64,000 bases of DNA from Theionarchaea archaeon (GCA_018992685.1 JACVGT010000011.1:32001-96000), one strand, 5' to 3'; shown: positions 2,649 to 53,771, counted from the stretch's first letter. The notes: generated from the letters alone by a model not told the origin. Program-made: numbers and translations.

Positions 2649-3653
2649 TTATTTGTACTTGATACGCGGATCGATGTAGACGTAAATGATATCAGTAGCC
2701 AAGTTAATGATCACGAACGCAGTGGCAAAGAACAGCGTAAATCCTTGAATCACAGGATAGTCATAGGCCAGTATAGCGTCTGCAATGTACTTGCCCAGTC
2801 CTGGCAAGGTAAATATCGTTTCTGTCAGTACTGCCCCCCCCATGAGCAATCCAACATTCATACCGATAACAGTGACGATGGGGATCAATGCATTACGAAT
2901 AGCATGTTTGTAGACAACCACTCGTTCTGAGAGGCCTTTTGCTCTCTCCGTTCTGATGTAATCCTGCCGCAGGACTTCCAGCATGGAAGACCTGGTCATT
3001 CTGGCGATTGTGGCCATGGGAATGGTGGCCAAAGCCACGGAAGGCAATATCAGGTGCTTGATACTGTCTAGAAATGCTTCCCCATTAAATGTCAGGATGC
3101 TGTCCAGGATGTTGAGTCCGGTAATCCGTTCCAGGTAGATACCTGTGGTCAGCCTCCCCCCTATGGGAAGTACTCCAAGTTTGACTCCAAAAATGAACAG
3201 CATCATCAGTCCAAGCCAGAACACAGGCATGGACACACCAAACAGGGCTCCAAACATGACCCCATAATCAACTGGTGAATACTGACGGACAGCGGAAACA
3301 ATTCCAGCAAGAATACCAAAAAATGATGCGATAATCATGGCAAATATCGATAGCTCCAAGGTGGTGGGTAGTCGTTCCACAATTTCAACCGTAACCAATT
3401 CACGGGATTTGATTGATCTTCCCAAGTCACCTTTCAGAGCCATTTCAATCCAGATAAGGTACTGTTCATAAATAGGTTTGTCCAGGTGGTATTTTTCCCG
3501 TATCTGTTCTAGTACCTGGGCAGTGGCGTGTTCACCTGCCAGATTGACGGCAGGATCTCCTGGTGCTGCTCGTACCAGCACGAAGGTGATAATAGAAACA
3601 CCAAAAAGCACCACTACGAGCATTGCCAATCGTTTCAGGACATATTCTTTCAT
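2649..3653 (-). CDS. dppB: Peptide ABC transporter permease (DppB-like)
   Basis: PGDP motif, GDLGRS, DYIRTERAKGL EAA loop. Confidence 0.93.
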   Translation of the reverse strand: MKEYVLKRLAMLVVVLFGVSIITFVLVRAAPGDPAVNLAGEHATAQVLEQIREKYHLDKPIYEQYLIWIEMALKGDLGRSIKSRELVTVEIVERLPTTLELSIFAMIIASFFGILAGIVSAVRQYSPVDYGVMFGALFGVSMPVFWLGLMMLFIFGVKLGVLPIGGRLTTGIYLERITGLNILDSILTFNGEAFLDSIKHLILPSVALATIPMATIARMTRSSMLEVLRQDYIRTERAKGLSERVVVYKHAIRNALIPIVTVIGMNVGLLMGGAVLTETIFTLPGLGKYIADAILAYDYPVIQGFTLFFATAFVIINLATDIIYVYIDPRIKYK

Positions 3654-3686
3654 CTTTTCACCTCAAAAAAGAAAAAAGGGAAAGAT

Positions 3687-5414
3687 TTATTTTCTTTTGA
3701 TTCGCAGGACAATTCCTCCCACCAAGAGAAGAGCGACGAAGAGTGTTCCCAGTCCAGCTCCTCCTTCTTCTTCTACCCATACAGGATAGAAGAACTTTCT
3801 GCTTGTGGGGTGAATGACGTAACCATGCACCGTGGACAGGAAGGCAAGGTTCTGGTCGGCATGTGCAATGAAGACATGGGAGCACTGGTCTACCAGAAGT
3901 TTGTTTGCCTGTTCATACAGAGCACCTCTCTCATCCTGGTCATACGTCAACAGCGCCCTGTTGAGAAGATCCTGGAATTCAGGGTTCTTCTTGAATCCGA
4001 TGTTACCTGCACTGCCTACTGTTGCCTTGTCCTGGGAGTACAGCACATTGAGGAAGTTGTCAGGGTCACCGTTGTCCCCTGTCCATCCCAGCATAGCCAT
4101 GGCGTGCTTGCCGGCCTCAGTGTCCTGCAGATAGGTACCCCAGTCTTCAGTGAACAGCTCCACCGTGATACCTACTTCTGCCAGATCTGCCTGGATTGCC
4201 TCTGCAATCTCGGTGGGTACAGGGAAGTACGGTCGTGAAACAGGCATGTGCCACAAGACTACTTCAAACCCGTCAGGGTATCCTGCTGCTGTCAGGAGGT
4301 CCCGTGCTTTCTGTGGATTGTACTCATATCCTGTGATGGCATTGTTGTATCCAAACAGGACAGGGGGCATCCCCTGGTTGGCCGCAGTAGCTGCTCCCTG
4401 GTACAGGTTCCTGACTATTGCATCTTTGTCAATAGCATGAGCAATGGCCTGCCTTACACGGACATCATTGAATGGCTCAAAGGCTCCAGTCACGTCCACT
4501 TCTTCACCTGAATCCCACTTACCATTCTCGTTTGCGTCAACGTATCCTTCGCCGCAGTTCAATGCAATGTATCCCACGTTCATTCCTGCCTGTGAGATCA
4601 GCTGCAGTTTTGGATCATTCTTGATAATGTCCAGCTGCTTGGGGTCAACGTGCTCAATTCCGTGGACTTCTCCTGCCTGCAATGCCATTAACCGGGCCGA
4701 TGGATCTGGAATAACTTTGAAGACCAATTCATCAATTTGGGGCGGGTCTCGCCAGTAGTCCTCGAAAGCCCTCAGAGTAATGTGGTCGTCCTTAACCCAT
4801 TCCACAAACTCAAAGGGTCCAGTTCCTACAGGGTTCTTAAAGTAATCCTCCCCGTATTGTTGTGCAGCCTTTTCACTAACAATACACACAGTAAACATAG
4901 CCAGACTTGTCATGATCGAAGCATTGGGCTGCCTCATGTGGATAGCGACCTTGTACGTATCCAGCTTCTCCACACTCTCAATATCAGTGTACATGTAGCC
5001 CCAGTAGGCCCATTCACCTTTGTCGTAGTACCAGTTGCTTGAATCGTACTGTCTTGCGAAGGAGAAAACCACGTCATCAGCAGTCACTTCACCAAACCCG
5101 TGATGGAACTGCACACCTTTTCTCAGGTTGAACGTGATAGTTTTCTTGTCATCTGAGACATTCCAGTCTGTTGCAAGGCATGCCCTGATGTTGGTGGTTC
5201 CACCATCATATTCTACAAGACCTTCGTGTATGTTGTCCATCCTCTGGATGGATTCACCGTCTGTAACATCTGCAGGATCAAGTCGTACTGCATCACCGGA
5301 TGAACCGAAGATAAAGATTGTTTTCGTCTCTGGTGCCTTTTCTTGGCCCACACATCCGGCCAATAAGGTTACCAAAACCAGCACAGCTGCGATCGCTTTA
5401 AGTTTTGTTTTCAT
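3687..5414 (-). CDS. dppA: Peptide ABC transporter substrate-binding lipoprotein (family 5, DppA-like) with C-terminal membrane anchor
   Basis: Lipobox LAGC, LRKGVQFH, PVGTGPF, GWTGDNGDPDNFL; hydrophobic C-terminus ending RIKRK. Confidence 0.92.
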   Translation of the reverse strand: MKTKLKAIAAVLVLVTLLAGCVGQEKAPETKTIFIFGSSGDAVRLDPADVTDGESIQRMDNIHEGLVEYDGGTTNIRACLATDWNVSDDKKTITFNLRKGVQFHHGFGEVTADDVVFSFARQYDSSNWYYDKGEWAYWGYMYTDIESVEKLDTYKVAIHMRQPNASIMTSLAMFTVCIVSEKAAQQYGEDYFKNPVGTGPFEFVEWVKDDHITLRAFEDYWRDPPQIDELVFKVIPDPSARLMALQAGEVHGIEHVDPKQLDIIKNDPKLQLISQAGMNVGYIALNCGEGYVDANENGKWDSGEEVDVTGAFEPFNDVRVRQAIAHAIDKDAIVRNLYQGAATAANQGMPPVLFGYNNAITGYEYNPQKARDLLTAAGYPDGFEVVLWHMPVSRPYFPVPTEIAEAIQADLAEVGITVELFTEDWGTYLQDTEAGKHAMAMLGWTGDNGDPDNFLNVLYSQDKATVGSAGNIGFKKNPEFQDLLNRALLTYDQDERGALYEQANKLLVDQCSHVFIAHADQNLAFLSTVHGYVIHPTSRKFFYPVWVEEEGGAGLGTLFVALLLVGGIVLRIKRK

Positions 5415-5472
5415 GTTTTCCCTCCTATTGTGAGAACTAGAGTTCTCCTTAGTTCAAAGACAGCTTTTTCAA

Positions 5473-5487
5473 TATATAAAGCTTTCG
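5473..5487 (-). promoter_or_regulatory. BRE/TATA promoter of the dpp operon
   Basis: Reverse strand CGAAAGCTTTATATA about 60 nt upstream of the dppA ATG, which has a GGAGG RBS. Confidence 0.7.
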
Positions 5488-5766
5488 ATGTTCATAGTTT
5501 GAAGAGTTCTTCGTCAGTCTTCTGCTCTATAGGCTAGAAAACACATTCTGATCAACGAGGTGGCAAAATTTCTCGACTATCTGAGATGTTCCTCAGGTAT
5601 TTCCACCACAGAATGAGAAGGGACCCTTACCCTCAGTTATTGATTTCTCGGATGGGGTTCATGCAGCTCCTCCTGTTCTAGCTTGATCTCATGAATTGCA
5701 GGGGATTTTCGATTACACGGTCTGGAGCCCCCGAACTCTTTTAAGTGCTCATTCCCCAGGTGGTCT

Positions 5767-6183
5767 GTGAACTATACCATGGTGGAAACGGATTCAGGCT
5801 ACAGGGTATTCCAAGACCGAATTGCCCTCCTGGATGGAATGCAGCTCAGGTTCCTCTATGATGTAGGACGTTGTCAAATTGCCGATACAAATTCGCTCTT
5901 TGCCTATTTTGAATCCATTGAAGCCTTTGAGCAACTGATTGCCCTTGACCTTGTCACCCTGCGGCCTCATCGAGTGCCCGGACCCGGGGAGAAAAAGGTG
6001 ATCCAGTGGAAAGGGATCCTGTTCTATGCAATTCAGGCTTCCGTATTTAGACCAGAGGTAACAGAGAAGGGCATCCACCTCCTTCAGGAAGTGAAGAAAA
6101 GTGATTCCTTCTCAGCATGCATGGAAGATATGGACCAGAAAATCGCAGAGAAACTCGTGTACCTGAGGATTGAGCATGACTAG
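5767..6183 (+). CDS. Hypothetical protein
   Basis: 138-aa ORF after a TTTTAAG TATA-like box; its stop overlaps the next start; no family recognised. Confidence 0.6.
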   Translation: MNYTMVETDSGYRVFQDRIALLDGMQLRFLYDVGRCQIADTNSLFAYFESIEAFEQLIALDLVTLRPHRVPGPGEKKVIQWKGILFYAIQASVFRPEVTEKGIHLLQEVKKSDSFSACMEDMDQKIAEKLVYLRIEHD

Positions 6184-6814
6184 AAAGCCCTTGTACTATG
6201 TTTCCAGAGAAAAGAAGACCTACCACATTGGGTTCCGGAGCTCGGGGAGAAATGAACTGCTGAAATCACGGCTTTCGCGTTTTATGGAAGGGTTTACAGC
6301 GGATTCATGGCTCAGAGAGACTGATTCTGCAGTGTACGCCTTTTGCCGTTCTCTTCCCGAGAGTGTGGTGAATCTCTGGTTCTCGCAGATTTCACGAGAA
6401 CGTTCTGCCATCAAGGAATCAAGAAATGCAGTAAAAGTGGGAAAAGACGGAAGAGCTTCAAAAGCTGTAAAGGTAAGGAAAACAGGAAAGTACAATAATC
6501 TGGTCTCCTCTGTGATTCGTCAGCTTCCACGAAAGAGAATTCGCAGCATAGGGGAGCTCTACTACAGGATTCCTCCCTCTGTTCCTCCCGACATTTCCAG
6601 GACTGGTAGGAGGAAAAGGAAAAAGGATCTTGCAACACTCAAAGAAGAGGTCATGGCTCAACGATTGTGGGAACCATTTGTCCCCACATGCAGTGAATGT
6701 GCTTTCTGGGAAAAACACATCCTCCCCTACAGCCAGGTGAATACAGGCCAGTGCAAGGCTACGAGAAATCTGGTAGAGGGAGAGAACAAGGCCTGCTCTG
6801 AATTTCAAAAGTAG
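6176..6814 (+). CDS. Basic hypothetical protein with C-terminal Cys4 cluster (possible Zn-binding)
   Basis: Lys/Arg-rich; CSEC...C...C near the C-terminus; ATG at 6176 overlaps the upstream gene end. Confidence 0.6.
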   Translation: MTRKPLYYVSREKKTYHIGFRSSGRNELLKSRLSRFMEGFTADSWLRETDSAVYAFCRSLPESVVNLWFSQISRERSAIKESRNAVKVGKDGRASKAVKVRKTGKYNNLVSSVIRQLPRKRIRSIGELYYRIPPSVPPDISRTGRRKRKKDLATLKEEVMAQRLWEPFVPTCSECAFWEKHILPYSQVNTGQCKATRNLVEGENKACSEFQK

Positions 6815-6896
6815 GATGAGGGTATCATCTTATAAATTCTGGGTTACAAGCGCGTTCATTGGTAACCTTTAAAAATTCCAAATTCACGAACAGGAT

Positions 6897-8075
6897 ATGG
6901 ACTCACGACTCTGGAATGCAATCAGCATCATTGCGTTTTCTATCCTTCTGCTGCTGGGGTTTTATGTTACGCACTTCCTTCTAGATGTCCTCCTGATTGC
7001 AGTCATCATATCCTACATGGTCAGGCCTGCAAAAGAGAAGTTGCCCTTCAAGAATGAGACACTTTCAACTCTTCTGGCTGAGATTATCGTCCTAGTACCA
7101 CTTTTCCTCTTCTTGGTCTTTACCTTTCTTTCCCTTGCGAATGCGCTTGTGGCGCAGCACGCATTGAAATCCGTGCTTCAGGACATCGGAGCAATAGGGG
7201 AAACTGTCAACAGAATTGTGGGAGATTTTCTGCAGTTTCTAGGAATCAGCGAAACTCAAATTGCCGAGGCCTCTCTGGAGACGCTGACCTCACGAATTGA
7301 GGTTCTCACTCAGGACATAACAGAGACTGTTGTAACCTGGGCATTCAAACTTCCCAGCGTTATAATTCGACTGTTTCTGGCGACTTTTCTCTCTTTCTAT
7401 TTCGTGCGTGATGGGAAAAGTCTGAGAGATGCTTTGATTAAAATAACTCCAGACAACAAGAAGGAGAAAATTGCCAGAATGGTGACAGCCTGCGATGCAG
7501 TAATATATGGCATTGTGGTGGGGTATCTTTTCAAGGCTATCATCACAGCATTTCTCTCCATTATTGTATTCTACTTCCTTGGGATTGGTAACCCTTTTGT
7601 CATGGGAGTCGTGCTTGCGGTTTTTGATTTCATCCCTTTGATCGGACCCTGGACTGTCTTCCTCGGCTTGTTTCTATGGTATGCACTCCAGGGACAGGTA
7701 GCCTATGCCATCGAGGTGGCAGGAATCTGTTACTTCACCATCTCTCTGGTGCCGGAACTGTACATTCGTCCCAAGGTATCAGGGACGATTTCTCAGGTTC
7801 ATCCCATGGTGATGCTGGTAGGGATTCTGGGCGGTATCTTGTCTATGGGTCCTATCGGAGTTATTGCAGGTCCCCTCATTCTTGGAATGATTGTGGTGAT
7901 CGTCAAGAGCTACTTTCTGGACATGCGTATTGAGAAGGAAGACATTATTGGCAGGCTCCTGATAAATGCTGGGGCCCGGCTGAAGAAGCTGAACCCCAGA
8001 CAGGGCAGAGAGGCTCCTGAAGACAAAGATGAGAATGGTGAGGATGGAAGATCCGCCGGGGTGGAACAGTCATGA
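6897..8075 (+). CDS. AI-2E family (UPF0118/PerM-like) transporter
   Basis: Multi-TM; FYFVRDG, FIPLIGP, IRPK...HP...G..G...GP motifs. Confidence 0.85.
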   Translation: MDSRLWNAISIIAFSILLLLGFYVTHFLLDVLLIAVIISYMVRPAKEKLPFKNETLSTLLAEIIVLVPLFLFLVFTFLSLANALVAQHALKSVLQDIGAIGETVNRIVGDFLQFLGISETQIAEASLETLTSRIEVLTQDITETVVTWAFKLPSVIIRLFLATFLSFYFVRDGKSLRDALIKITPDNKKEKIARMVTACDAVIYGIVVGYLFKAIITAFLSIIVFYFLGIGNPFVMGVVLAVFDFIPLIGPWTVFLGLFLWYALQGQVAYAIEVAGICYFTISLVPELYIRPKVSGTISQVHPMVMLVGILGGILSMGPIGVIAGPLILGMIVVIVKSYFLDMRIEKEDIIGRLLINAGARLKKLNPRQGREAPEDKDENGEDGRSAGVEQS

Positions 8076-9085
8076 CCAACTGGAAATCACTCATCCTGCT
8101 TCTTGCTGGAATAGGTATCATTGCTCTTCTTATTCACCTGGCAGGAATGGAAAGAGTTTTCGATCTGCTCTCGGAGGCTGATTTCAAGTTCGTTGCGGCA
8201 GCAGTAGGCTGCCAGGTCATGGCATTGCTCCTATGGTCGTGGCGGTGGAAGATCCTGCTGCATCCGTTTCATGTAGCTCCATTGAGGAGATGCCTTTCAG
8301 GAATTCTCATTGGGACATTCTTCAACAATATCACTCCGATTGCCAAGGCAGGAGGTGAACCCTTCAGAGCCTACTACTTGGGGGAAAAAGAAGAGGTACG
8401 GTTTGAAGACACTTTTGCCACGGTGGCTATGGACAGGATCATGGAGAGTCTCCCGTTTCTGATTGTTTTCGTTGGCTCTGTGGTGTATGTCACGTTCCAT
8501 CACGGGACCAGTGGTGAAATGATCATTGTTGTGGGGTTTGCCCTTTTTCTTAATATTCTCCTGCTGGCGGGAGTATTGTATCTTTCGTACAATCTGGGAG
8601 CTGCCAAGAGATTGATATTCATGTTTTTTGGGTTGGTGGGCCGCTTTTCCAACAGATTGGAAAAGTATGAGAGTGCAGTGGAAGAAGCTGTAGAACGATA
8701 TCATGGTGCCATAAAGATGTTATTTTCCCATCAGACGAGACTCTTCGCTTCTTTCTGTATTTCATCAGTATTCTGGCTTCTTTTAATTCTCAGGAACTAC
8801 TTAGTAGTTCTTGCCCTCGGATATGAAGTCGAATTCTCGGTTATTGTGGTGATCCAGACCGTAAGCACCCTTGTTGGAATCATTCCCATATTGCCAGGAG
8901 GTCTGGGTTCGACTGATGGGATCATGATATTCCTGTATCTTTCTTTCGGATTTCCGGCTGCAGCAGCAGTGAGTGCCTCTCTCCTGGACCGATTCATAAG
9001 TTACTGGATGGTGACCACACTCGGTGCTGTTGTCGTAATTGCTGAGCGGAATCTGCTGAGAGGACAGGATTCCTCGTCTGGGTGA
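8072..9085 (+). CDS. UPF0104 / lysylphosphatidylglycerol-synthase TM-domain (flippase-like) protein
   Basis: RWKILL, FFNNITP.AKAGGEPFRAY, PGGLGSTD, LLDRFISYW motifs. Confidence 0.85.
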   Translation: MTNWKSLILLLAGIGIIALLIHLAGMERVFDLLSEADFKFVAAAVGCQVMALLLWSWRWKILLHPFHVAPLRRCLSGILIGTFFNNITPIAKAGGEPFRAYYLGEKEEVRFEDTFATVAMDRIMESLPFLIVFVGSVVYVTFHHGTSGEMIIVVGFALFLNILLLAGVLYLSYNLGAAKRLIFMFFGLVGRFSNRLEKYESAVEEAVERYHGAIKMLFSHQTRLFASFCISSVFWLLLILRNYLVVLALGYEVEFSVIVVIQTVSTLVGIIPILPGGLGSTDGIMIFLYLSFGFPAAAAVSASLLDRFISYWMVTTLGAVVVIAERNLLRGQDSSSG

Positions 9086-9500
9086 TGATGATCACTCCTC
9101 CTGAGATGTAGGTGCCACACGATATTTTTCGCTAGTGTATGCACCAAAGCTGCAGGCAGGCCACAGGGATTTCTGAATTTGGGGCTTCTGTCGGTTCCTG
9201 AAGTATCTCCTCCTGATACTTTTTTTGCCAGAAGACTGGATGAACTCTCTGCTGGGGATCATAGAATCCCGTTCCGGGAGCCGGAGTATTCCACTCGCAA
9301 AAATATGGCGACGTTCTCACTGTGCTCTTCTTGATGCGAGAGTGAAGTACCTCCAATGTCTTCAATAGAGGGAGAATGGAGGTATTCGTGCCTTTCATTT
9401 CTGTGTAACCCTGAAAAACACTGAACAATCAAAGTCCAGAAAGATTTATAAGTGATGAGATGAAAGCGATACACATCTCAGTCTAACGTTTGGTGATTAT

Positions 9501-9794
9501 ATGGAACGGTCAAAAGGCATCAGAAGCAGGACCAGATACAAGATGAAGAAGAAGCCCAGAGAGCGAGGGCTACCTTCTCTGTCCCGCATTCTCCAGGAAT
9601 TTGAATGCGGGCAGTATGTGCACATAGATATTGAGCCCTCTATTCACAAAGGGATGCCTCACCCTCGATTCCAGGGGAGGACTGCTGTGGTTAGAGAGAA
9701 ACGGGGCAGTTCCTATGTTCTGGAAATTCGAGAAGGATCAAAGCACAAAACCATAATTGCGCGACCTGAACATCTTCGGCCTCAGGAGGGATAG
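9501..9794 (+). CDS. rpl21e: 50S ribosomal protein L21e
   Basis: SKGIRSRTRYKMKK, HKGMPHPRFQGRT, RPEHL. Confidence 0.97.
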   Translation: MERSKGIRSRTRYKMKKKPRERGLPSLSRILQEFECGQYVHIDIEPSIHKGMPHPRFQGRTAVVREKRGSSYVLEIREGSKHKTIIARPEHLRPQEG

Positions 9795-9796
9795 GA

Positions 9797-10135
9797 TTGG
9801 ATGGGAAGCAAATTGAAAAGTCTGAACCAGTTACCCTAGCTGAGGTTAGAGCTATTCTTTCCTCTCGCAGAGAGGCTGGGGATCTTCTGTATGAGCAGAG
9901 CATTGCTCTGGATCATGCCAACAAGTTTGCCCGCCTGGACATTGAAAAGGCTCACAAACTCGTTGAAGAGCTGGTGGAATCAGGAGTCCGGAAGGATATG
10001 GCCTGTAAACTTGCTGATCTTCTTCCCCAGAGCAAAGAAGAGCTCCAGATGCTCTTTCCAAAAGAACGGTTCATTTCAGATGAACCCCTGATAGAAAAAA
10101 TCATTTCGACTATTCAGAAATATGGGGAGAGCTAG
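9797..10135 (+). CDS. rpo4: DNA-directed RNA polymerase subunit Rpo4 (F)
   Basis: VTLAEVRAIL...YEQSIALDHANKF...KLADLLP; conserved position after rpl21e. Confidence 0.9.
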   Translation: MDGKQIEKSEPVTLAEVRAILSSRREAGDLLYEQSIALDHANKFARLDIEKAHKLVEELVESGVRKDMACKLADLLPQSKEELQMLFPKERFISDEPLIEKIISTIQKYGES

Positions 10136-10678
10136 ATGCAAAAAACGTATGAAGACTATGGTGTTGTCCTTGACTTTCTGCCCCAGGGCTATCCAACAGA
10201 GAAAGGGTTCAAGAGAACCCCCATCGTGCAGCTCCTGGGGGAAGCCCACTTCTCTCTATTGGAGGCAATCCCGCGAGGTCATCTGACATCCCACGAACGG
10301 GTCTTCATAGGAAAGGGAAATCGTAAGAGAATTAACCACATAAAACGACGGTTGAGTCATGATGATCTTACCAGCTCTGCAAAGGCAGAGTTGCCCTATG
10401 TTGTTGAAGAAGTGGTGGAACGGTGCGAACAGCAATTTGTAGAGTTTTTCAATACTTCCCGTGCCATCACCATACGGTATCACCAGCTGGAGCTCTTGAG
10501 TGGAGTAGGGAAGAAGCTCATGAATGAGCTTTTGACCCAACGCAGGAAAGAAGAATTCAAGAGTTTTGAAGACATCAAGCAGAGAATTCCCTCTGTCCCC
10601 GATCCCAAAAGGATGATTGCCAAGAGAATCGTCACTGAAATAAAAGGGGAAGACAAATATCACATTTTTGTATTCTGA
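10136..10678 (+). CDS. DUF655 family putative nucleic-acid-binding protein
   Basis: VLDFLPQG, HQLELLSGVGKK HhH-like motif, FKSFEDI; rpl21e-rpo4-DUF655 synteny. Confidence 0.9.
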   Translation: MQKTYEDYGVVLDFLPQGYPTEKGFKRTPIVQLLGEAHFSLLEAIPRGHLTSHERVFIGKGNRKRINHIKRRLSHDDLTSSAKAELPYVVEEVVERCEQQFVEFFNTSRAITIRYHQLELLSGVGKKLMNELLTQRRKEEFKSFEDIKQRIPSVPDPKRMIAKRIVTEIKGEDKYHIFVF

Positions 10679-24972: not shown

Positions 24973-24989
24973 CGAAACATTTATAAATA
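24973..24989 (+). promoter_or_regulatory. BRE/TATA promoter of RiPP cluster 1 precursor
   Basis: CGAAACA-TTTATAAATA about 40 nt upstream of ATG 25029; AGGAGGTG RBS at 25015-25022. Confidence 0.75.
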
Positions 24990-25028
24990 AGAAAGAGAAT
25001 AATAGCAAAACTACAGGAGGTGCGAACC

Positions 25029-25127
25029 ATGAAGTTTAACGTAAGGAAGTTGGAGACCGTCTCAACTACTGTTGCTGCAGCAGATGACGTGGTCCCTTGG
25101 AAAGAAGCCAAGCTGCAGTGCCTGTAA
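25029..25127 (+). CDS. Putative RiPP precursor peptide 1 (32 aa, MKFNVRKLETVSTTVAAADDVVPWKEAKLQCL), absent from the ORF track
   Basis: Manual translation; strong RBS, own promoter, oligo-T tract, immediately upstream of three RRE-rSAM genes. Confidence 0.82.
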   Translation: MKFNVRKLETVSTTVAAADDVVPWKEAKLQCL

Positions 25128-25151
25128 TCTTTCCAAAAGGGATCTAGAAAG

Positions 25152-25181
25152 TTTTCTTTGACTTTTTTGTTTTTTTTCTTT
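25152..25181 (+). terminator. Oligo-T archaeal terminator/attenuator after precursor 1
   Basis: TTTTCTTTGACTTTTTTGTTTTTTTTCTTT directly after the peptide stop. Confidence 0.65.
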
Positions 25182-25210
25182 GCCACATTGATGGTTATCC
25201 GGTGTGAAAA

Positions 25211-26551
25211 ATGCCTTACCTGCGAATAATCAAGACCTCAGTGATCAGAACGATTCCTCTGGGAGTGTACCTATGTGTCCCTCACGGGTTTGCGTCTGAA
25301 GCATACTATCCTGTGATGGAAGTTGACGAATCCATAAAAGAGGTTCTCACCCTCTGTGACGGGACACGAACTCGAGAGGATATCCTCAGTCACCTTGCTG
25401 CAGAAACTGGAGAATCTGTGGAGGAGGTGGCGGAAGGATTTGACCAGTTTGTGGAATACATGGTACAGGAGGGTGTACTGGAATGGAGAGAAGAACCGTC
25501 TCCTCTTGAGCCTCTTTACTTGAAGAATAGACCACTGGGGATTATCATGGAGATAACGTCCGACTGCAACCTGCAGTGCCCAATGTGTTATGCTGATTCA
25601 GGAACTGGGCACTCGTGCGATCTAGCGCTGGATGATGTGACCGCCATTGTTGAGGCATCTAAGAAAATGAGGTCAACGTCTCTCGTTATCACTGGAGGCG
25701 AGCCCCTCCTCCGGAAAGACCTGGTGATCTACATGCTGAAAGAGCTCTCCCCCGTAGAGACAGTGGACGTGGCTCTCTTTACAAATGGTACGCTCGTTAC
25801 CAGTGAATATGCACGAGACCTGTATGATGCAGGGCTAAGGCACGCTATTGTCAGTGTGGACGGACACACAGCAGAACTGAACGACAAAATACGAGGTCAT
25901 GGGGCTTTTGAGAAGACAATTCAAGGTATTCATTATCTCAGAGAACGTGGTATTCAAGTCAATGTTGTAACTACGATTTCTCAGACCAATTATCCATATA
26001 TGAAAGAGATCAGAGAGTTTACCTCCCAAATCGGAGACGGCAGCGGCTTGATCCCTGTTTCTCCTTTTGGAAGAGCTGCCCCGGAAATTCTCTTGACTCC
26101 AGAAGGAGTGTTCAGTGTCATGATGGCAAATCTTCCTCCTGGAGAACTTGAAATCAGTATCCCCCCTCGTGATAGATGCAATGTGGGACAGAGTGTTTAC
26201 ATTAGAGCTAACGGAGACGTCTTTCCCTGTGTGAATATGCAGATCCCTGAATTCAGGATGGGGAATATTCGAGAGGAAGATTTCTGGGAAATGTATCAAT
26301 CAGATCTGGTACGAAACCTCTTGCAACTGACAGTCAAGGACTTTGAGCAGTGCAGAGACTGTGATATTCGCTATTACTGCGGAGGCTCGTGTAGAGGGTT
26401 TGCTTACAAACTGAATGGCTCGTTGTACCTTCCAGACCCCTGGAATTGCGGGGCAAATAAGAAACTGACTGAAGAGATTTTGAAAAATGGTGGAGAGACT
26501 ACCAAGAAAGGACTCCGAGAGCTGCTAAAATCCACCAAGGAGTTACTATGA
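25211..26551 (+). CDS. RRE(PqqD-like)-radical SAM/SPASM peptide maturase A
   Basis: N-terminal LCDGTRT..DI wHTH; CNLQCPMC; TGGEP; SPASM C..GDVFPC..CRDC..CGGSC..C. Confidence 0.92.
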   Translation: MPYLRIIKTSVIRTIPLGVYLCVPHGFASEAYYPVMEVDESIKEVLTLCDGTRTREDILSHLAAETGESVEEVAEGFDQFVEYMVQEGVLEWREEPSPLEPLYLKNRPLGIIMEITSDCNLQCPMCYADSGTGHSCDLALDDVTAIVEASKKMRSTSLVITGGEPLLRKDLVIYMLKELSPVETVDVALFTNGTLVTSEYARDLYDAGLRHAIVSVDGHTAELNDKIRGHGAFEKTIQGIHYLRERGIQVNVVTTISQTNYPYMKEIREFTSQIGDGSGLIPVSPFGRAAPEILLTPEGVFSVMMANLPPGELEISIPPRDRCNVGQSVYIRANGDVFPCVNMQIPEFRMGNIREEDFWEMYQSDLVRNLLQLTVKDFEQCRDCDIRYYCGGSCRGFAYKLNGSLYLPDPWNCGANKKLTEEILKNGGETTKKGLRELLKSTKELL

Positions 26552-27025
26552 GGAAGAGATTTTTCATCATACCAGTCTGGTGAGAGATGAAGCCATCCGA
26601 GAGAAAGAGCCGAAAATAATAGACCTGTCCCGTTTCTTGGGAGTCCATGGAATTCCAGTGTATATTCCTGACTTTCTTCTTGGAATATAGGCTGGAACAT
26701 GTGCGGAGGTGATGAAATGCAATATCTAAGAGTGACAAAGACACCAATCGTCAGAAGAATGCCGCTGGGAACATATGCATGTTTCCCTTCAGGGTTTCAA
26801 CTTGAATCCTTCTATCCAATAATGGAAATCGACGGATCCATAGAAGAGGTTCTCACCCTCTGTGATGGAACACGAACTCGAGAGGATATCCTCAACCACC
26901 TTGCTGCAGAAAGTGGAGAATCTGTGGAGGAGGTGGCGGAAGGATTTGACCAGTTTGTGGAGTACATGGTACAGGAGGGTGTACTGGAATGGAGAGAAGA
27001 ACCGTCTCTTGTTGAGCCTCTTTAC
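25325..27025 (+). repeat. 195-bp near-identical direct repeat (25325-25519 and 26831-27025) encoding the RRE helices of maturases A and B
   Basis: Manual codon alignment: 10 mismatches in 195 nt, no gaps. Confidence 0.9.
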
Positions 27026-28063
27026 AGAGAGAACAGACCCTTCAGTATCACCATAGACATTACATCAGCGTGCAACCTTCAATGTGACTTCTGTTCGGCT
27101 GATTCAGGGGCCCCACGGGGTGATGATCTGACAATGGAACATATCGACCCTCTTCTTGAGCAGGTGAAAAAGTGCAAACCCACGCCTTTTGCCATAAGCG
27201 GCGGAGAGCCCCTTCTCAAGAAGGAAATGGTACTCCACATTTTGGAAGAACTTGCTTCCATTAGAGAAACTGCTGTGACCATTTTTACTAACGCGACCCT
27301 GGTGAATAGAGATTATGCTCAACAGCTTTATGATGCAGGACTGAGATATGCACGAGTCAGTGTGGACGGGCACACAGCACAGGTGCACGATGCAATACGA
27401 GGAAAGGGAACGTTCCAGAAGACGACTCAGGGAATACAGTATCTGAGAGAGCTTGGCATTCACGTCAATACCGTGTCTGTGATTTCCAAGACGAACTATC
27501 AGTATCTGGGTGAGATCAGACACTTTGTTAATCACATTGCAGACAGCTATGGTCTTGCTGTTGTGCAGGAGTATGGAAGGGGTGCAGAGTCTGGGCACCT
27601 GCTTCTCAGTGAAGAAGAACGGTTCAATGTTAATATGTCCAATCTCAGAACAGAAAACATTCAGACGAATGTCAGCCCTCGAGACAGATGCAACGTAGGA
27701 GAGACCATCTACATCAGAGCCAATGGAGATATCTTTCCGTGCTTCTATCTTCAGTTCCCCGAATTCAGAGTGGGTAATATTAAGGAGAACGATCTCTTTG
27801 AAATCTACGAACACAAGATCATGAAGGACCTGTTGAAAATGACTGTTGCAGATATCGAGGAATGCCGGGAGTGCGAGATCCGGTACTACTGTGGAGGCGC
27901 ATGCAGAGGGTTTGCGTATCTGGAGCACAGCTCAGTTCACGTTCCAGATCCTCTGAACTGTGAAAAGAACAAAACGATCGTTCGCATGATTCTGGAAAAG
28001 GGTGAGGAGAATACGAAGCAACTGCTCAGAGAAGTGTTGGATTCAACTTCAGCACTGGGATAG
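26717..28063 (+). CDS. RRE(PqqD-like)-radical SAM/SPASM peptide maturase B
   Basis: GGAGGTGA RBS before ATG 26717; LCDGTRT; CNLQCDFC; SGGEP; SPASM CREC..CGGAC. Confidence 0.92.
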   Translation: MQYLRVTKTPIVRRMPLGTYACFPSGFQLESFYPIMEIDGSIEEVLTLCDGTRTREDILNHLAAESGESVEEVAEGFDQFVEYMVQEGVLEWREEPSLVEPLYRENRPFSITIDITSACNLQCDFCSADSGAPRGDDLTMEHIDPLLEQVKKCKPTPFAISGGEPLLKKEMVLHILEELASIRETAVTIFTNATLVNRDYAQQLYDAGLRYARVSVDGHTAQVHDAIRGKGTFQKTTQGIQYLRELGIHVNTVSVISKTNYQYLGEIRHFVNHIADSYGLAVVQEYGRGAESGHLLLSEEERFNVNMSNLRTENIQTNVSPRDRCNVGETIYIRANGDIFPCFYLQFPEFRVGNIKENDLFEIYEHKIMKDLLKMTVADIEECRECEIRYYCGGACRGFAYLEHSSVHVPDPLNCEKNKTIVRMILEKGEENTKQLLREVLDSTSALG

Positions 28064-28105
28064 TTCTCTTTATTGCAGCAGTATCCATGGATCGAAGGGA
28101 GGGAC

Positions 28106-29461
28106 ATGAAGATGGATCATGTGAAGAAGCAATATCCTCGGGCTGTCCACCAGGTTGTCATCAGGCATACACGTGTTGGAGACTTCTTGATGTCAGGTGA
28201 CAGCTTGCTTGAAATGGATGGTCCGTCTCTTGAGGTAGTGAACTTGTGTGACGGTTGTCATACTGTCCAGGACATAGCAGAATGGGCAGCCAGAGAAGCA
28301 GACGAGCCTGTGGAAGAGGCGTATGAAGGGCTGATCCAGTTTCTGGACATGCTTTCAGGAGAAGGTGTCATTGTCTATAAGGATTCTCCAGACCCTTTCA
28401 ACCCTGTCTATTGCTATGATAGGCCGCTCTCTGTGATCTGGGAGATTACGTATGCATGCAATCAGCGGTGCAGGTACTGTATTGCTCAGGCTGGTACCCC
28501 TGATCCTGATGAACTCTCCCCACAGGAAATAGACAGAGTGCTGGACGAGCTGGTGGAACTTGGAATTGGGTTGATCAACATAACAGGAGGAGAGCCCCTA
28601 CTGAAAATGGATACTGCCCTTCACATAGCAAGGAGGGCCTCGGAGAATGGCATTGATCTCGAGCTGTTGACCAATGGAATGTTGATAACTTCCGACGTGG
28701 CTCAGAATATCTATGATGCAGGCATCCGGCATGCTCAGGTCAGTCTGGACTGTGTACGGCCAGAGGTTCATGATAACCAGAGGGGGGTGAAAGGTGCCTG
28801 GAAGAAAACTGTGAGTGGTATCCGAAACTTGAGAGATGCAGGAGTCAATGTCATGGCAGCGGCAGTCATGACCAGTGAAAACTTACAGTACTTTGAAGAG
28901 ACAAAGCAGTTTCTCAGGGAGATAGCTAATGTCGTCAAGATGGGTTCTGTTTTGCCAATGGGGCGGGGGGAGAACAGTATTTTTCTGCTCCCTCCTGAGG
29001 ACTATCTCACCTTTCTTAAATTGAGGAATACTGAAGAAGCCACGCTCACAGACTTCATTTTCTGCAGAGAGAAATGTTCTATAGGTACAACGCCTGTGAT
29101 TTCGCCACGGGGAGATGTGTATCCCTGCATGTTGACGAAATACGATGAACTGAAACTGGGAAATGTGAGGGATACGTCCATACACGCTATTTATGAGAAT
29201 TCTGATTTGCTTCAGGAGCTTTTCGACTGGAATGTGGACAAGGTAGATGCCTGCCATTCTTGTTGGAATCGCTACTACTGTGGAGGAGGGTGCAGGGGGT
29301 GCGCATTCGCATACCACGGGACTATTTATGGAAATGATCCATATCAATGTGCTGCCCGGAAGAAATTCGCTCGAGAGCTTCTTGTACGGGGAGATCCAGA
29401 AACTCGAAAAGCACTGAAACATCTAATCTTTTTAGCTAAGCATGACTCTGGTAGAGGATAA
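28106..29461 (+). CDS. RRE(PqqD-like)-radical SAM/SPASM peptide maturase C
   Basis: LCDGCHTVQDI; WEITYACNQRCRYC; TGGEP; SPASM GDVYPC..CHSC..CGGGC. Confidence 0.92.
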   Translation: MKMDHVKKQYPRAVHQVVIRHTRVGDFLMSGDSLLEMDGPSLEVVNLCDGCHTVQDIAEWAAREADEPVEEAYEGLIQFLDMLSGEGVIVYKDSPDPFNPVYCYDRPLSVIWEITYACNQRCRYCIAQAGTPDPDELSPQEIDRVLDELVELGIGLINITGGEPLLKMDTALHIARRASENGIDLELLTNGMLITSDVAQNIYDAGIRHAQVSLDCVRPEVHDNQRGVKGAWKKTVSGIRNLRDAGVNVMAAAVMTSENLQYFEETKQFLREIANVVKMGSVLPMGRGENSIFLLPPEDYLTFLKLRNTEEATLTDFIFCREKCSIGTTPVISPRGDVYPCMLTKYDELKLGNVRDTSIHAIYENSDLLQELFDWNVDKVDACHSCWNRYYCGGGCRGCAFAYHGTIYGNDPYQCAARKKFARELLVRGDPETRKALKHLIFLAKHDSGRG

Positions 29462-29463
29462 CC

Positions 29464-30705
29464 ATGGCTGATTATGATATAACGGATGAGAGTGTAGTCA
29501 AATTCCATGACTTATTCAGAGGTGAAGAGGACGAATCCATCACCGTAGGAAGGCAGGATATCGGGAAGTATGTCAGTCTCCCCAGAGATGCTGTGGAGGT
29601 CATCGATCTCCTGGATTCAGGACAGAAGGTTGGGGAAGTCAAAAGAGTCCTGAAGGACAAATATGGAGAAGACGTGGAAATCGAAGAGTTCATTGAAGAC
29701 ATGATTAAGAACGAAATGGTGAGGTCAATAGATGGATTCGAGATGGTCACGACGTCAAAACTACAAAAAGACCTTTTCAGTAGAGTAACTGCTCGCCATG
29801 TGGGGTGGATGTTCTCGAAGGTAGCATGGGTCATGTATATTGGCATGGCTATCTCATGTCTCATCATTTTTGCCCTTATTCCTGATTATATTCCATCTCC
29901 ACGTGATTATTTCTTCCATCCGTTGTATTCTGTGGCTGTTGGCTTCATGTTTTTCCTTGGATGGATTTTTGTGGCTATTCACGAACTGGCGCATTTGTTT
30001 GCGGCAAAATCTGTGGGAATTGAAGGGAATTTCAGTTTGAGCAATCGGTTGATCTTCATCGTGGCGCAGACAAACCTGGGCAATATCTGGACCATCCCGC
30101 GCAGAAGACGATTTGTCATCTATCTTGCCGGCATGGCGTGGGATTCAACATTGGTATTCATCTGTCTAGTACTGCTCTTCTTGTCTGATCATGGAGTGAT
30201 AACGCTCTCAGTCCTCTTGTACAAGTTCGTGAAAGCAGTGATTTTTGCCAAGGTGTGGACAATAATCTGGCAGTTTAGATTCAACATGCAGACCGATATC
30301 TACTACTCCATTGCCAACTACTTCAGGTGCCGAAATTTATTGGGCGATGCTCAGACCTACATAAAGAATTACAGTTCCAGATTCTATTCCCGAATAAAAG
30401 AGGCCGACATGAGCGGCATACCGGGAGATGAAATGAGAGTAATCAAGTGGTATGCTCTTCTCTACTTCGTTGGCACATCCATAACATTGGCCAGCTACTT
30501 TCTGAGAAATTTGCCCCTTGTCCTGCTCCAGATAATGAAAGCATTTGATGGACTCGTGATAGGCTACTCAGCAAGCCATGCAGATTTCACTGACGCAGTG
30601 GTGCTCATAGTCTTGAATGCCTTCAGATACGGACTCTTAGGATTCGTTATTTTGAGACCAAGATGGAATTGGCTGAAGGAGCGGTTTGCGGGTGCAAGAG
30701 CTTGA
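29464..30705 (+). CDS. RRE-fused intramembrane Zn-metalloprotease (M50/site-2-protease-like), putative leader peptidase
   Basis: Soluble N-terminal PqqD-like segment (VIDLLDSGQKVGEV...IEEFIEDM); TM-embedded HELAH; YLAG; FNMQTDIY in place of NxxPxxxxDG. Confidence 0.8.
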   Translation: MADYDITDESVVKFHDLFRGEEDESITVGRQDIGKYVSLPRDAVEVIDLLDSGQKVGEVKRVLKDKYGEDVEIEEFIEDMIKNEMVRSIDGFEMVTTSKLQKDLFSRVTARHVGWMFSKVAWVMYIGMAISCLIIFALIPDYIPSPRDYFFHPLYSVAVGFMFFLGWIFVAIHELAHLFAAKSVGIEGNFSLSNRLIFIVAQTNLGNIWTIPRRRRFVIYLAGMAWDSTLVFICLVLLFLSDHGVITLSVLLYKFVKAVIFAKVWTIIWQFRFNMQTDIYYSIANYFRCRNLLGDAQTYIKNYSSRFYSRIKEADMSGIPGDEMRVIKWYALLYFVGTSITLASYFLRNLPLVLLQIMKAFDGLVIGYSASHADFTDAVVLIVLNAFRYGLLGFVILRPRWNWLKERFAGARA

Positions 30706-52591: not shown

Positions 52592-53680
52592 ATGCTGGCA
52601 AAAGTGGAATTGACGGCCCGCTGCAATTTGAACTGTATGCACTGCAGCGCATCCATTTATAGACCCTCTCCAGAATGGAAGACAAGCCAATTACTAGGGC
52701 TACTTGAACAGCTCATAGATAATGGATATGATAGCTTCGATCTCAAAGGGGGTGAACCGTTTATCCGTTCTGACATATTCGAGATATTGGATTTCCTGGA
52801 ACGACACGATGCTTCATTCTTTCTTTCCACCAATGGACTTCTTCTTGATGAAGAAAAGATACGCAGGGTGCTCTCCTATCAGAGGCTTTCGACCTTCACT
52901 GTCAGTCTTGACGGCGCAACGAAAGAGACACACGAGGCCATGAGAGGAAAGGGCACATTTCATCCAACTCTAGAAATCATTAGGAGGATCGCTGAAACAA
53001 GAGAAATGCTAGGTTCACAGATACGGTTTGGTCTCAACTATGCCCTGACAAAGGTCAACTACCAGGAAATCAAAGATGTCTTTCACCTTGCAGATGAGCT
53101 TGGATTCAGTGCAGTGTTTGTTCTCTGCCTGTCTCTTATCGGCAACGCTCTTGAACATAAGGGTGACCTGTTCTTGCTAGAAAGAGACGAGCTTGCTGCG
53201 CTGAAGGAAGGAGCCACTGTTCTGAGGAAGATAGATATTGCTCGTCAGATCAGAGGGCTGTCTCCACTCGAATTCAACGTTGAGTTGTTCCCCTATAAAT
53301 GGAAGTGCCGGCTGATGAAATGGTCAGGACATTACAAAGGTTTCATAACAAAGAACCAGTGTAGTGCTGGGGTCAGCGAAATATATGTCGGAGCCGACGG
53401 TACAATCTATCCGTGTGAAGGAGTGAGAGTCTTTCTGAAGATGGTGGAAGAGGAAGTTGGACATTACACACGACCAAGTGTTTGGAATTATACAATCAAT
53501 GAGGCGAGACAGGAGGAATCTTTCAAGAAGATTGTAGACTTCCTCCATGATTACGACCGATTGTTTGAGTCCATAGAGCCCTGCAACACATGCGAACACC
53601 TCAGAAAATGTACAATATGTCCCCTGTTTGCCCGGGCAGACGGAAAGGTGAATAGATGCACAGAAGAGGTGTTGATTTGA
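52592..53680 (+). CDS. Radical SAM/SPASM-like maturase D (no fused RRE)
   Basis: CNLNCMHC, GGEP, VSLDG; C..GTIYPC..CNTC-x5-CTIC..C. Confidence 0.9.
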   Translation: MLAKVELTARCNLNCMHCSASIYRPSPEWKTSQLLGLLEQLIDNGYDSFDLKGGEPFIRSDIFEILDFLERHDASFFLSTNGLLLDEEKIRRVLSYQRLSTFTVSLDGATKETHEAMRGKGTFHPTLEIIRRIAETREMLGSQIRFGLNYALTKVNYQEIKDVFHLADELGFSAVFVLCLSLIGNALEHKGDLFLLERDELAALKEGATVLRKIDIARQIRGLSPLEFNVELFPYKWKCRLMKWSGHYKGFITKNQCSAGVSEIYVGADGTIYPCEGVRVFLKMVEEEVGHYTRPSVWNYTINEARQEESFKKIVDFLHDYDRLFESIEPCNTCEHLRKCTICPLFARADGKVNRCTEEVLI

Positions 53681-53771
53681 TGTATTATTTCGAGATCTTT
53701 TCACGCGAGCAAAGACGTTGGATGAATGGAGCTGGAGTACTCTTCAGAAGATCTGGAATCTGGGTGACGTC

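Follow-up and report, generated by a model that had tools for sequence, protein, structure and literature searches.

The window analysed here is a 64,000-nt stretch of the genome of an uncultured Theionarchaea archaeon from sediment, and the locus described below lies on its plus strand. It comprises a 32-codon open reading frame (25029–25127, +) encoding a putative precursor peptide, and four longer open reading frames downstream, all in the same orientation. Upstream of the small frame are a BRE-like purine-rich pentamer (24973–24977, +) and a TATA-like decamer (24980–24989, +), which together read as a candidate archaeal promoter, and a Shine–Dalgarno site, AGGAGGTG (25015–25022, +), placed six bases 5′ of the ATG. 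The stop codon is followed by a T-rich tract (25152–25181, +) with a T6 run (25163–25168, +) and a T8 run (25170–25177, +), a candidate archaeal terminator or attenuator. The features described by an earlier, sequence-only reading of the window were all confirmed at the positions it gave. On the basis of Pfam domains, motifs and a phylogenetic tree, the first three downstream genes encode RRE-rSAM/SPASM enzymes: enzyme 1 (446 amino acids; 25211–26551, +), enzyme 2 (454 amino acids from the first ATG; 26699–28063, +) and enzyme 3 (462 amino acids from a TTG; 28073–29461, +). The fourth (29464–30705, +) encodes a polytopic, RRE-fused membrane protein with an HExxH motif, an M50-like candidate leader peptidase. 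The earlier description of the locus as a complete pathway is presumptive, because neither a transporter nor an immunity gene was found in the cluster.

The 32-codon open reading frame is a genuine gene. A profile built from 12 precursor peptides and searched against the 32,460 stop-to-stop frames in the full set of loci yielded 18 matches with E-values of 1e-15 to 1e-20, the next best having an E-value of 1e-7; all 18 are situated in archaeal loci and adjoin homologous enzyme genes. The conserved blocks of the 12 precursor genes (66 pairs) have a mean pS of 0.75 and a mean pN of 0.21, and a pN/pS of 0.27 places them under purifying selection. The Shine–Dalgarno site is the same in all 12 homologous precursor genes, a T-run of at least five lies within 90 nt on the 3′ side in 11 of them, and a TATA-like box, located by regular expression, lies 5′ of eight. 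The exact window peptide has no entry in a collection of 15 billion proteins, and four of the seven homologous peptides looked up are present there, either as 'hypothetical protein' or unnamed.

Alignment of the 12 peptides reveals a leader that ends at approximately residue 14–15 and is joined through a variable linker to a C-terminal motif that is conserved. The invariant residues are M1, K7, E9, T14, W24, K25, E26, K28 and C31. Among these, K7, E9 and T14 match the leader segment proposed from the sequence alone. The core residues proposed at the same time divide into two groups: W24, E26, K28 and C31 are kept in all archaeal clades, including the distant clade L073–L079, but K25 is replaced in that most distant clade, and D19 and D20 fall in the variable stretch and are not conserved across the family. 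The window peptide ends in Cys-Leu, and each precursor has one invariant cysteine, C31, available for a thioether. Acidic or Cys-containing middle stretches tend to occur in clusters with more enzymes.

In many RiPP families, it is the product region that varies and the recognition sequences that are conserved. On that model, the variable residues 15–23 would be the true core, with the conserved C-terminal motif serving for recognition or as a follower and being trimmed away later. We regard this assignment as unlikely. Across the 12 peptides the middle stretch does differ in length as well as in composition, and the tendency noted above, relating acidic or Cys-containing middles to enzyme number, would also fit it; however, some middles are merely about five residues of Ala, Gly or Pro, and the invariant Trp, Glu, Lys and Cys are the side chains that rSAM/SPASM peptide maturases crosslink. 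Moreover, in the streptococcal radical-SAM RiPPs the modified motif lies in a conserved C-terminal region. The enzyme families of that group are given in a section of PMC11851443.

The three enzymes have a uniform domain architecture, with an N-terminal PqqD domain (Pfam scores of 29.5, 25.9 and 30.5 bits for enzymes 1, 2 and 3; cut-off 23.4), a Radical_SAM domain (81.7, 84.2 and 107.8 bits; cut-off 29.5) and a SPASM domain (44.5, 38.7 and 38.9 bits; cut-off 21.5). The CX3CX2C motif, at residues 119, 125 and 129 of enzymes 1, 2 and 3, respectively, is kept in 32 of 32 relatives, as are the seven C-terminal SPASM cysteine columns, a set that fits the predicted binding of two auxiliary clusters. 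Enzymes 1 and 2 are 58% identical and belong to clade A (support 100/100), and enzyme 3, which is 449 amino acids long in its protein-collection form, belongs to clade B1. Within the RRE of enzyme 1, a tract (25346–25525, +) has a partner in enzyme 2 (approximately 26852–27031); the two show 92–98% nucleotide identity with a pS of 0.05–0.13, compared with 0.5–1.0 elsewhere in these genes, and were also detected as a direct repeat. Judged from this pattern of identity, the tandem clade-A enzymes have a gene-converted RRE segment in common.

The enzymes form a clade of their own, with identity dropping sharply from at least 38% to at most 31%. Comparison with NCBIfam families, including StsB, WgkB, MftC, PapB, SCIFF, AlbA, SkfB and PqqE, matched 86, 85 and 84 models to enzymes 1, 2 and 3, respectively, and none of the best 25 models per enzyme attains its family cut-off (best score/cut-off of 137.9/625, 136.7/650 and 156.8/265); no chemistry is therefore transferable by homology. 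The closest solved structures by sequence are those of CteB (PDB entry 5wgg) and SkfB (6efn), both of which form thioethers.

The fourth protein is predicted to open with a winged-helix domain that folds like an RRE. The model of its N-terminus (AF2, pLDDT of 82) comprises four strands (residues 11–39) followed by three helices (41–82), and Foldseek matched it to the leader-bound RRE of the lasso-peptide protein TbiB1 (5v1v_A; probability 1.00, target-normalised TM-score of 0.68 and r.m.s.d. of 3.1 Å) and to the RREs of TigE, ThcOx and McbB (0.97, 0.94 and 0.87). The match to the Pfam PqqD sequence model is weak, at 13.9 bits against a cut-off of 23.4, with matches at E ≤ 1 in 7 of 11 family members (best 0.0032), and a profile search against PDB sequences returned TbiB1 alone (E = 0.27), so the assignment of this RRE rests on the predicted fold. 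Thus, of the four PqqD-like N-termini that had been proposed, those of the three enzymes exceed the Pfam cut-off and the fourth is recognized by predicted fold and not by Pfam sequence score.

The metalloprotease assignment of the same protein is tentative. The HExxH motif (H173, E174 and H177) is invariant and lies within a modelled helix (155–183). Three acidic residues, D278, E323 and D377, are invariant across 15 diverse sequences, and D227 is invariant in narrower sequence sets only; no canonical second M50 motif was recognized. The Peptidase_M50 score falls below threshold (20.2 bits against 27.2), with matches at E ≤ 1 in 9 of 11 family members (best 6.7e-6), and a precomputed PF02163 match is present in 2 of 72 homologues and in 17% and 49% of the members of look-alike Atlas clusters. 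Several homologues carry the JGI label 'putative peptide zinc metalloprotease protein', which we take to be the KEGG name for YydH. The membrane domain was modelled with a pLDDT of 89 and a pTM of 0.84, and a Foldseek search of the PDB, a method that may overlook distant membrane folds, retrieved no protease and no solved site-2-protease fold among the 50 matches listed, all of which have E > 0.06 and r.m.s.d. > 19 Å.

Recurrence of the small gene upstream of maturase homologues, a check suggested by the earlier reading, is nearly universal at the archaeal loci assessed. The precursor was found at 20 of the 21 assessable rSAM and protease loci (those with flanks on the contig), or at 11 of 12 distinct loci after near-identical ones were merged. 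Of the 41 related genomes searched, just three have the system. Peptide and protease co-occur: both are in G000, G001 and G002, and neither is in G003. The genome of the window has three paralogous cassettes, and one locus (L053/L054) holds up to three different precursors. Archaeal cassettes have one to three rSAM enzymes from two clades, and the protease and rSAM moieties are fused in proteins of 939–974 amino acids (L074–L078) and 855 amino acids (L014). A clade-A-only cassette (L004) and clade-B-only cassettes (L005, L065–L069 and L073–L079) bear the same conserved precursor motif, so that no division of labour among the three window enzymes can be read from it. Three loci were counted against the RiPP reading: L055, with a clade-B1 enzyme and a protease, has no recognisable precursor in the 6.6 kb upstream; L059 has a precursor and a protease and no rSAM gene on its 11-kb contig; and L061 has a protease by itself.

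The leader extends beyond the archaea. The same leader type is present at 31 of 37 bacterial and other loci that have homologues of the fourth protein, with 39 matches in 3,889 nearby frames and 2 in 13,807 control frames. ThiF-like genes occur at 19 of the 37 loci, in 17 cases within 300 nt of the protease gene, and hypervariable cores are seen at the bacterial sister loci. Archaeal and bacterial clusters share both the leader and the RRE-protease, and in bacteria a ThiF-like enzyme often takes the place of the rSAM enzymes.

The invariance of the C-terminal motif would be unusual in an antimicrobial peptide and raises the alternative of a scaffold or cofactor precursor like those of PQQ, mycofactocin or the pearlins: a small molecule would be assembled from the conserved C-terminal residues and released by the membrane protease through cleavage at that end. 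There is precedent for the last step, as passages of PMC10885120 describe the release of C-terminal modified residues from scaffold peptides by the M50 proteases TglG and TmoG. We nevertheless consider a cofactor role very improbable. The mycofactocin maturase model is the top score of enzyme 3 (156.8 bits) but misses its cut-off of 265 bits, and no redox partner genes adjoin the window cluster. Furthermore, the restriction of the system to 3 of the 41 genomes searched and the hypervariable bacterial cores speak against it, and three paralogous cassettes per genome with as many as three precursors per locus are more in keeping with a natural-product or signalling family than with a cofactor. 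That the small open reading frame is not the substrate at all, being for example a regulatory upstream peptide, and that the enzymes act on another protein is barely credible: the archaeal radical-SAM/SPASM enzyme CrpC modifies the full-size protein CrpA, according to part of PMC13692751, and L055 lacks a nearby precursor, but the peptide combines a coding signature with invariant Trp, Glu, Lys and Cys, keeps a constant place before RRE-bearing enzymes with which it co-occurs across genomes, and shares its leader type with peptides that accompany the same protease family in bacteria.

Several characterized systems resemble the cluster in part. The epipeptide operon of Bacillus subtilis (yydFGHIJ/epe) also encodes together a small precursor (YydF), a radical-SAM epimerase (YydG) and an intramembrane M50 protease with HExxH (YydH/EpeP); EpeP is thought to perform both cleavage and export (PMC7026026 and PMC10885120, in part). 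As described, the epipeptide system is set apart by its enzyme and protease, as the archaeal enzymes have SPASM and fused RRE domains and number one to three per cassette, in two clades, and the protease is itself RRE-fused; in addition, the two precursors are unrelated, and the window cluster lacks an ABC transporter. The thioether formers CteB, SkfB, PapB and StsB and the Trp crosslinkers StrB/SuiB, WgkB, WprB and DarE share the RRE-rSAM-SPASM order of the window enzymes, and crosslinking maturases are likewise paired with a short conserved C-terminal motif containing Trp, Lys and Cys, albeit in different precursor families. StsB and WgkB are two of the top-scoring NCBIfam models for the window enzymes, which score 135.6–141.1 (cut-off 625) and 131–141 (cut-off 650), respectively; scores with PapB are 75.7–82.7 (cut-off 340), and SCIFF reaches 84 (cut-off 425) with enzyme 3 and is outside the best 25 models for enzymes 1 and 2.

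In the ThiF-like adenylyltransferase (TLAT) RiPPs, such as enterofaecin (EnfA/EnfB), the likeness lies in the bacterial relatives of the window protease, beside which RRE-ThiF genes and short precursors with a leader of the archaeal type are found. Processing of EnfA by the RRE-bearing EnfB requires a conserved basic leader motif, as a passage of PMC11256085 states. The window cassette differs in having no ThiF enzyme, a ThiF domain being absent from the four window cluster genes and the immediate flanking genes scanned. A term search of two ThiF reviews and of the enterofaecin paper (PMC11256085) returned no mention of an M50 or membrane protease partner. The pearlin, mycofactocin and PQQ pathways also derive their products from peptides, by means of RRE-guided enzymes and a peptidase of their own; TglG and TmoG are membrane-bound M50 enzymes (PMC10885120, in part). 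However, the window cluster has no PEARL enzyme, the MftC and PqqE models score below cut-off on its enzymes, and its precursor is without the terminal residues that those pathways use.

The cluster is probably a RiPP cassette for a crosslinked peptide, in which a precursor with a leader is served by three RRE-rSAM/SPASM maturases and a membrane protease with HExxH and a fused RRE; it seems to represent an uncharacterised family of peptides that are made ribosomally and modified by enzymes. The core of this interpretation had been drawn from the sequence alone, and domain scans, precursor conservation, coding signature, the predicted RRE fold of the fourth protein and co-occurrence support it. 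The pathway that we infer, from leader binding to modification, cleavage, export and biological role, would run as follows. The precursor would be transcribed from its own promoter, and the T-rich tract behind it would probably allow more transcript to be made of the peptide than of the enzymes. Each of the four downstream proteins would recognize the leader (K7, E9 and T14) through its N-terminal PqqD-like RRE. The two clade-A enzymes and the B1 enzyme would then apply 5′-deoxyadenosyl radical chemistry to the W24/E26/K28/C31 motif and install one or more intramolecular crosslinks, most likely a thioether from Cys31 to a carbon of a side chain or of the backbone (Glu26, for example) and/or a C–C bond from Trp24 to Glu26 or Lys28. 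Our leading guess for the modification is a Cys thioether, a Trp crosslink or both. Finally, the membrane protein would release the leader by cleaving close to where the conserved T-T-(A/V) segment ends, and may also move the product across the membrane; M50 proteases known in RiPP maturation include EpeP in epipeptides and TglG/TmoG in pearlins (PMC10885120, in part).

More tentatively, and with somewhat less than an even chance in our estimation, the cassette may belong to a cross-domain RiPP superfamily defined by a shared leader and an RRE-HExxH protease, in which the modifying enzyme is swapped, being ThiF-like in many bacteria and rSAM/SPASM in archaea. The archaeal branch would then be a new crosslinked class built on an invariant Trp-x-Glu-x-Lys-x-x-Cys motif, with the two enzyme clades making different crosslinks and gene conversion keeping the leader-binding domains matched.

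The cluster begins on the forward strand with a precursor ORF of 32 codons (25029–25127). A TATA-like decamer (24980–24989), with a purine-rich pentamer on its 5′ side, and the Shine–Dalgarno (SD) site AGGAGGTG (25015–25022) were read from the sequence upstream of this ORF on the same strand, and runs of T6 and T8 (25163–25177, +) lie 3′ of its stop codon, a T-tract that would predict more transcript for the peptide than for the enzymes. Four ORFs in the same orientation follow: enzymes 1, 2 and 3 (25211–26551, 26699–28063 and 28073–29461) and a membrane protein, the fourth protein or protease (29464–30705). The assembly comprises 3.03 Mb in 45 contigs, with the window corresponding to positions 32001–96000 of contig 3. 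Upstream, on the opposite strand, are a KaiC-like ATPase, NAC and an SSB-like protein, and downstream are ThiW, an unnamed protein of 171 aa and a cytosine/purine-type permease; all six were rejected as cluster members. The boundaries drawn in the sequence-only reading are borne out, since the genes on both flanks are unrelated. Elsewhere in the window (52592–55497, +), a separate set of two radical-SAM genes (362 and 391 aa), for which the domain scan found no SPASM match, precedes a protein of 210 aa whose PqqD domain scores 33.6 bits, and this set may be another peptide-modification cluster.

The precursor recurs beside its enzymes. Loci were collected by searching with the protease rather than with the peptide, which yielded 39 loci from species genomes and 29 from metagenomes. 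A profile of 12 peptides searched against 32,460 stop-to-stop frames gave 18 matches (E of 1e-15 to 1e-20). Every one of these sits next to the enzymes in an archaeal locus. The peptide is present in 20 of the 21 loci that have a radical-SAM (rSAM) and a protease gene with their flanks on the contig, or 11 of 12 distinct loci when the near-identical L053/54, L060/64, L065/66/69, L073/79 and L074–78 are merged; the exception is L055, and five loci that begin within an enzyme gene were left out of this count. Locus L059 encodes peptide and protease, with no rSAM gene found, and L061 has the protease only. The peptide genes carry a coding signature (mean pS of 0.75 versus mean pN of 0.21 over 66 pairs), an SD site in 12 of 12 cases and a downstream T-run in 11 of 12; at the level of sequence, the data support the peptide gene being coding. 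Three genomes of one genus encode both the peptide and the protease, and neither was found in the fourth genome of the family; beyond those three, a search at E ≤ 1e-5 did not find the protease in any of the remaining 38 genomes, one from the family and 37 from the order and class.

Two further copies of the peptide are found in the genome from which the window comes, each followed by one rSAM/SPASM gene with a RiPP recognition element (RRE) and by a homologue of the fourth gene. The cassette on contig 7 (L005, contig 7 90000–103000; 3230–7401) additionally contains an rSAM/SPASM protein lacking the RRE, a TldD/PmbA pair and an FMN reductase, with ABC-transporter-like genes beyond them, and represents an expanded form of the pathway. 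The archaeal locus L053/L054 holds three different precursor genes, two between the genes of enzyme clades B1 and A and one after the protease gene.

Among the 12 peptides, M1, K7, E9, T14, W24, K25, E26, K28 and C31 are invariant, and the stretch between T14 and W24 differs in length and composition. A distant clade (L073–L079) retains the leader type together with the W, E, K and C residues. Of the core residues singled out in the sequence-only reading, W24, E26, K28 and C31 are thus kept even in that clade; D19 and D20 are not conserved, and K25 is replaced in L073–L079.

Enzymes 1–3 each match PqqD, Radical_SAM and SPASM above the Pfam curated cut-offs, and the CX3CX2C motif and seven SPASM cysteines are conserved in all 32 aligned relatives. 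NCBIfam returned 84–86 matching families per enzyme; among the best 25 listed for each, none attains its cut-off, and the top models, StsB, WgkB and MftC, score 137–157 bits against cut-offs of 265–650. The nearest solved structures by sequence are the thioether-forming CteB and SkfB (E of 1e-13 to 1e-18). Assignment of the chemistry by homology was rejected, as the NCBIfam and PDB sequence searches yield only generic rSAM/SPASM similarity. A protein search of 5.8 billion clusters found 77 relatives of enzyme 3 with at least 38% identity, named, where a name is given, as 'radical SAM protein' of Theionarchaea; below these, identity falls sharply to 31% or less and the matches are generic rSAM/SPASM proteins.

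A maximum-likelihood tree was built from 36 rSAM sequences of the loci, with sequences longer than 800 aa trimmed to their last 450 residues, identical ones merged and rows with less than 70% query coverage excluded. Clade A (12 rows, support 100/100) contains enzymes 1 and 2, clade B1 (9 rows, support 100/100) contains enzyme 3, clade B2 contains the contig-7 paralogue, and clade B3 is a distant metagenomic set. The same C-terminal motif accompanies clade A alone and clade B alone in different loci; there may thus be partial redundancy between the clades, or each of them could form several links. Locus L057 has two clade-A genes, and between these and the protease gene is a short fragment (7251–7457) resembling residues 93–163 of the clade-B enzyme, possibly a decayed clade-B gene.

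Overall, enzymes 1 and 2 share 58% identity. Over residues 46–105 of enzyme 1, the two genes share 92–98% nucleotide identity with a pS of 0.05–0.13, compared with 0.5–1.0 in the rest of the genes. The pattern is that left by recent gene conversion, here limited to the leader-binding domain, and fits with two diverged catalysts being held to a single leader.

The fourth protein has 72 homologues at E ≤ 0.001, nearly all 51–82% identical and from Theionarchaea or Methanofastidiosia assemblies, some of which carry the JGI name 'putative peptide zinc metalloprotease protein'; the homologues also include a Bacillus 'PqqD family protein' (32% identity). Its HExxH motif (H173, E174 and H177) is invariant in the aligned homologues. 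In the AlphaFold2 model (pLDDT of 82), four strands and three helices form an N-terminal module, and the membrane domain that comes after it is helical. Foldseek matches this module to TbiB1 with its leader peptide (probability of 1.00, target-normalised TM score of 0.68 and r.m.s.d. of 3.1 Å over 90 columns), and also to the RREs of TigE, ThcOx and McbB. The membrane-only model (pLDDT of 89) has no solved relative among PDB structures, and the whole-protein model likewise gave no convincing match for the membrane part. Since the Pfam matches to Peptidase_M50 and PqqD both fall below cut-off, the predicted fold of the module is RRE-like and the membrane domain is without a solved relative, we describe the protein as an RRE-fused, M50-like HExxH membrane protein, in which the RRE fold is supported by the model and M50 membership is not established. 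Complex prediction for protease residues 1–100 and the precursor (alignments A2 and A3, respectively) scored 0.07 against a mark of 0.32 and gives no verdict. In L016 (Aphanothece assembly, 8301–9263), an in-frame stop interrupts the membrane part of the protease homologue, which was left out of alignment A4 for this reason; the stop reflects a pseudogene or, alternatively, an error of assembly.

Outside the Theionarchaea, 37 genome loci represent cyanobacteria, Bacillota, Actinomycetota, myxobacteria, Chloroflexota, other groups and one Thermoplasmata genome. An rSAM match at E ≤ 1e-8 is present in the Thermoplasmata locus (L014) and in none of the other 36. ThiF-like genes occur in 19 of the 37 loci, in 17 cases no more than 300 nt from the protease gene (tblastn), and three examples score 150–193 bits with Pfam ThiF. 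At least one nearby small frame on the same strand has the archaeal leader type in 31 of the 37 loci; such matches number 39 in 3,889 frames near the protease, one of which, in L045, resembles chance, versus 2 in 13,807 control frames. The non-Theionarchaeal cores are short and bear no relation to the archaeal motif. PMC11256085 reports that EnfB, the RRE-bearing ThiF-like enzyme of enterofaecin, needs a conserved basic leader motif, and the resemblance of this motif of EnfA to the leader of the present archaeal and bacterial loci is a lead by analogy. Protease-like and rSAM/SPASM modules are fused in single ORFs in L074–L078 (939–974 aa, about 7500–10400) and L014 (855 aa, 6810–9377), in both module orders, with a leader-type small frame beside each. 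In L023 (Thermoactinomycetaceae, 3100–6200), roughly a dozen small frames in tandem, with this leader and different short cores, lie 5′ of a ThiF-like gene and a protease homologue. In cyanobacterial, Chloroflexota, myxobacterial and other loci (L015–L017, L019, L020, L022, L024, L027, L030, L031, L033, L034, L038, L040 and L043), the protease homologue is directly preceded by leader-type peptides whose cores are rich in Cys, and neither a ThiF nor an rSAM gene was detected.

In the proposed pathway, the leader would dock onto the RREs, the rSAM/SPASM enzymes would crosslink the C-terminal motif, and the membrane protein would remove the leader near the conserved T-T-(A/V) boundary, at which the bacterial cores also begin. 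A thioether at Cys31 is favoured by three weak pointers: it is the single invariant Cys of the peptide, a Glu sits five residues N-terminal to it, and the nearest solved relatives of the enzymes form thioethers. Carbon–carbon crosslinks from Trp24 to Glu26 or Lys28 are equally possible, and streptide, darobactin and the three-residue cyclophanes provide precedent for Trp-centred linkages of this type. Export of the product may be a further role of the membrane protein, as PMC10885120 proposes for EpeP.

The closest architectures include the epipeptide system, which pairs a radical-SAM enzyme with an intramembrane M50 protease, and the RRE-rSAM/SPASM crosslinking pathways. Judged by sequence, the precursor family is unnamed and the cluster reaches the threshold of no named family. 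To our knowledge, hardly any archaeal RiPPs are characterised, and the literature searched yielded none from this uncultured lineage. Searched by cluster type rather than peptide motif, the literature contained no description of this peptide family, nor of an RRE-fused M50-like protease or of the ThiF and M50 cluster type; the supplementary similarity-network tables of RRE and ThiF papers could list any of these. Nor did look-ups by term find any of them described in the available text of PMC12596934, PMC12250964, PMC12144867, PMC10885120, PMC12710340, PMC11256085, PMC13692751 and PMC7026026.

The cassette is small, with a single peptide, a single protease and between one and three enzymes, and is directly tractable in a heterologous host, and the natural single-enzyme versions of the same genome with clade A only (L004, contig 19) or clade B2 only (L005, contig 7) would let the reaction of each clade be assigned. 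Gene conversion of the RRE in tandem enzymes points to how paralogous maturases could remain tuned to one leader. The leader and RRE-protease provide a genome-mining handle that is independent of the class of modifying enzyme and, being common to bacteria and archaea with differing modifying enzymes, represent a clear case of modular evolution of RiPP pathways.
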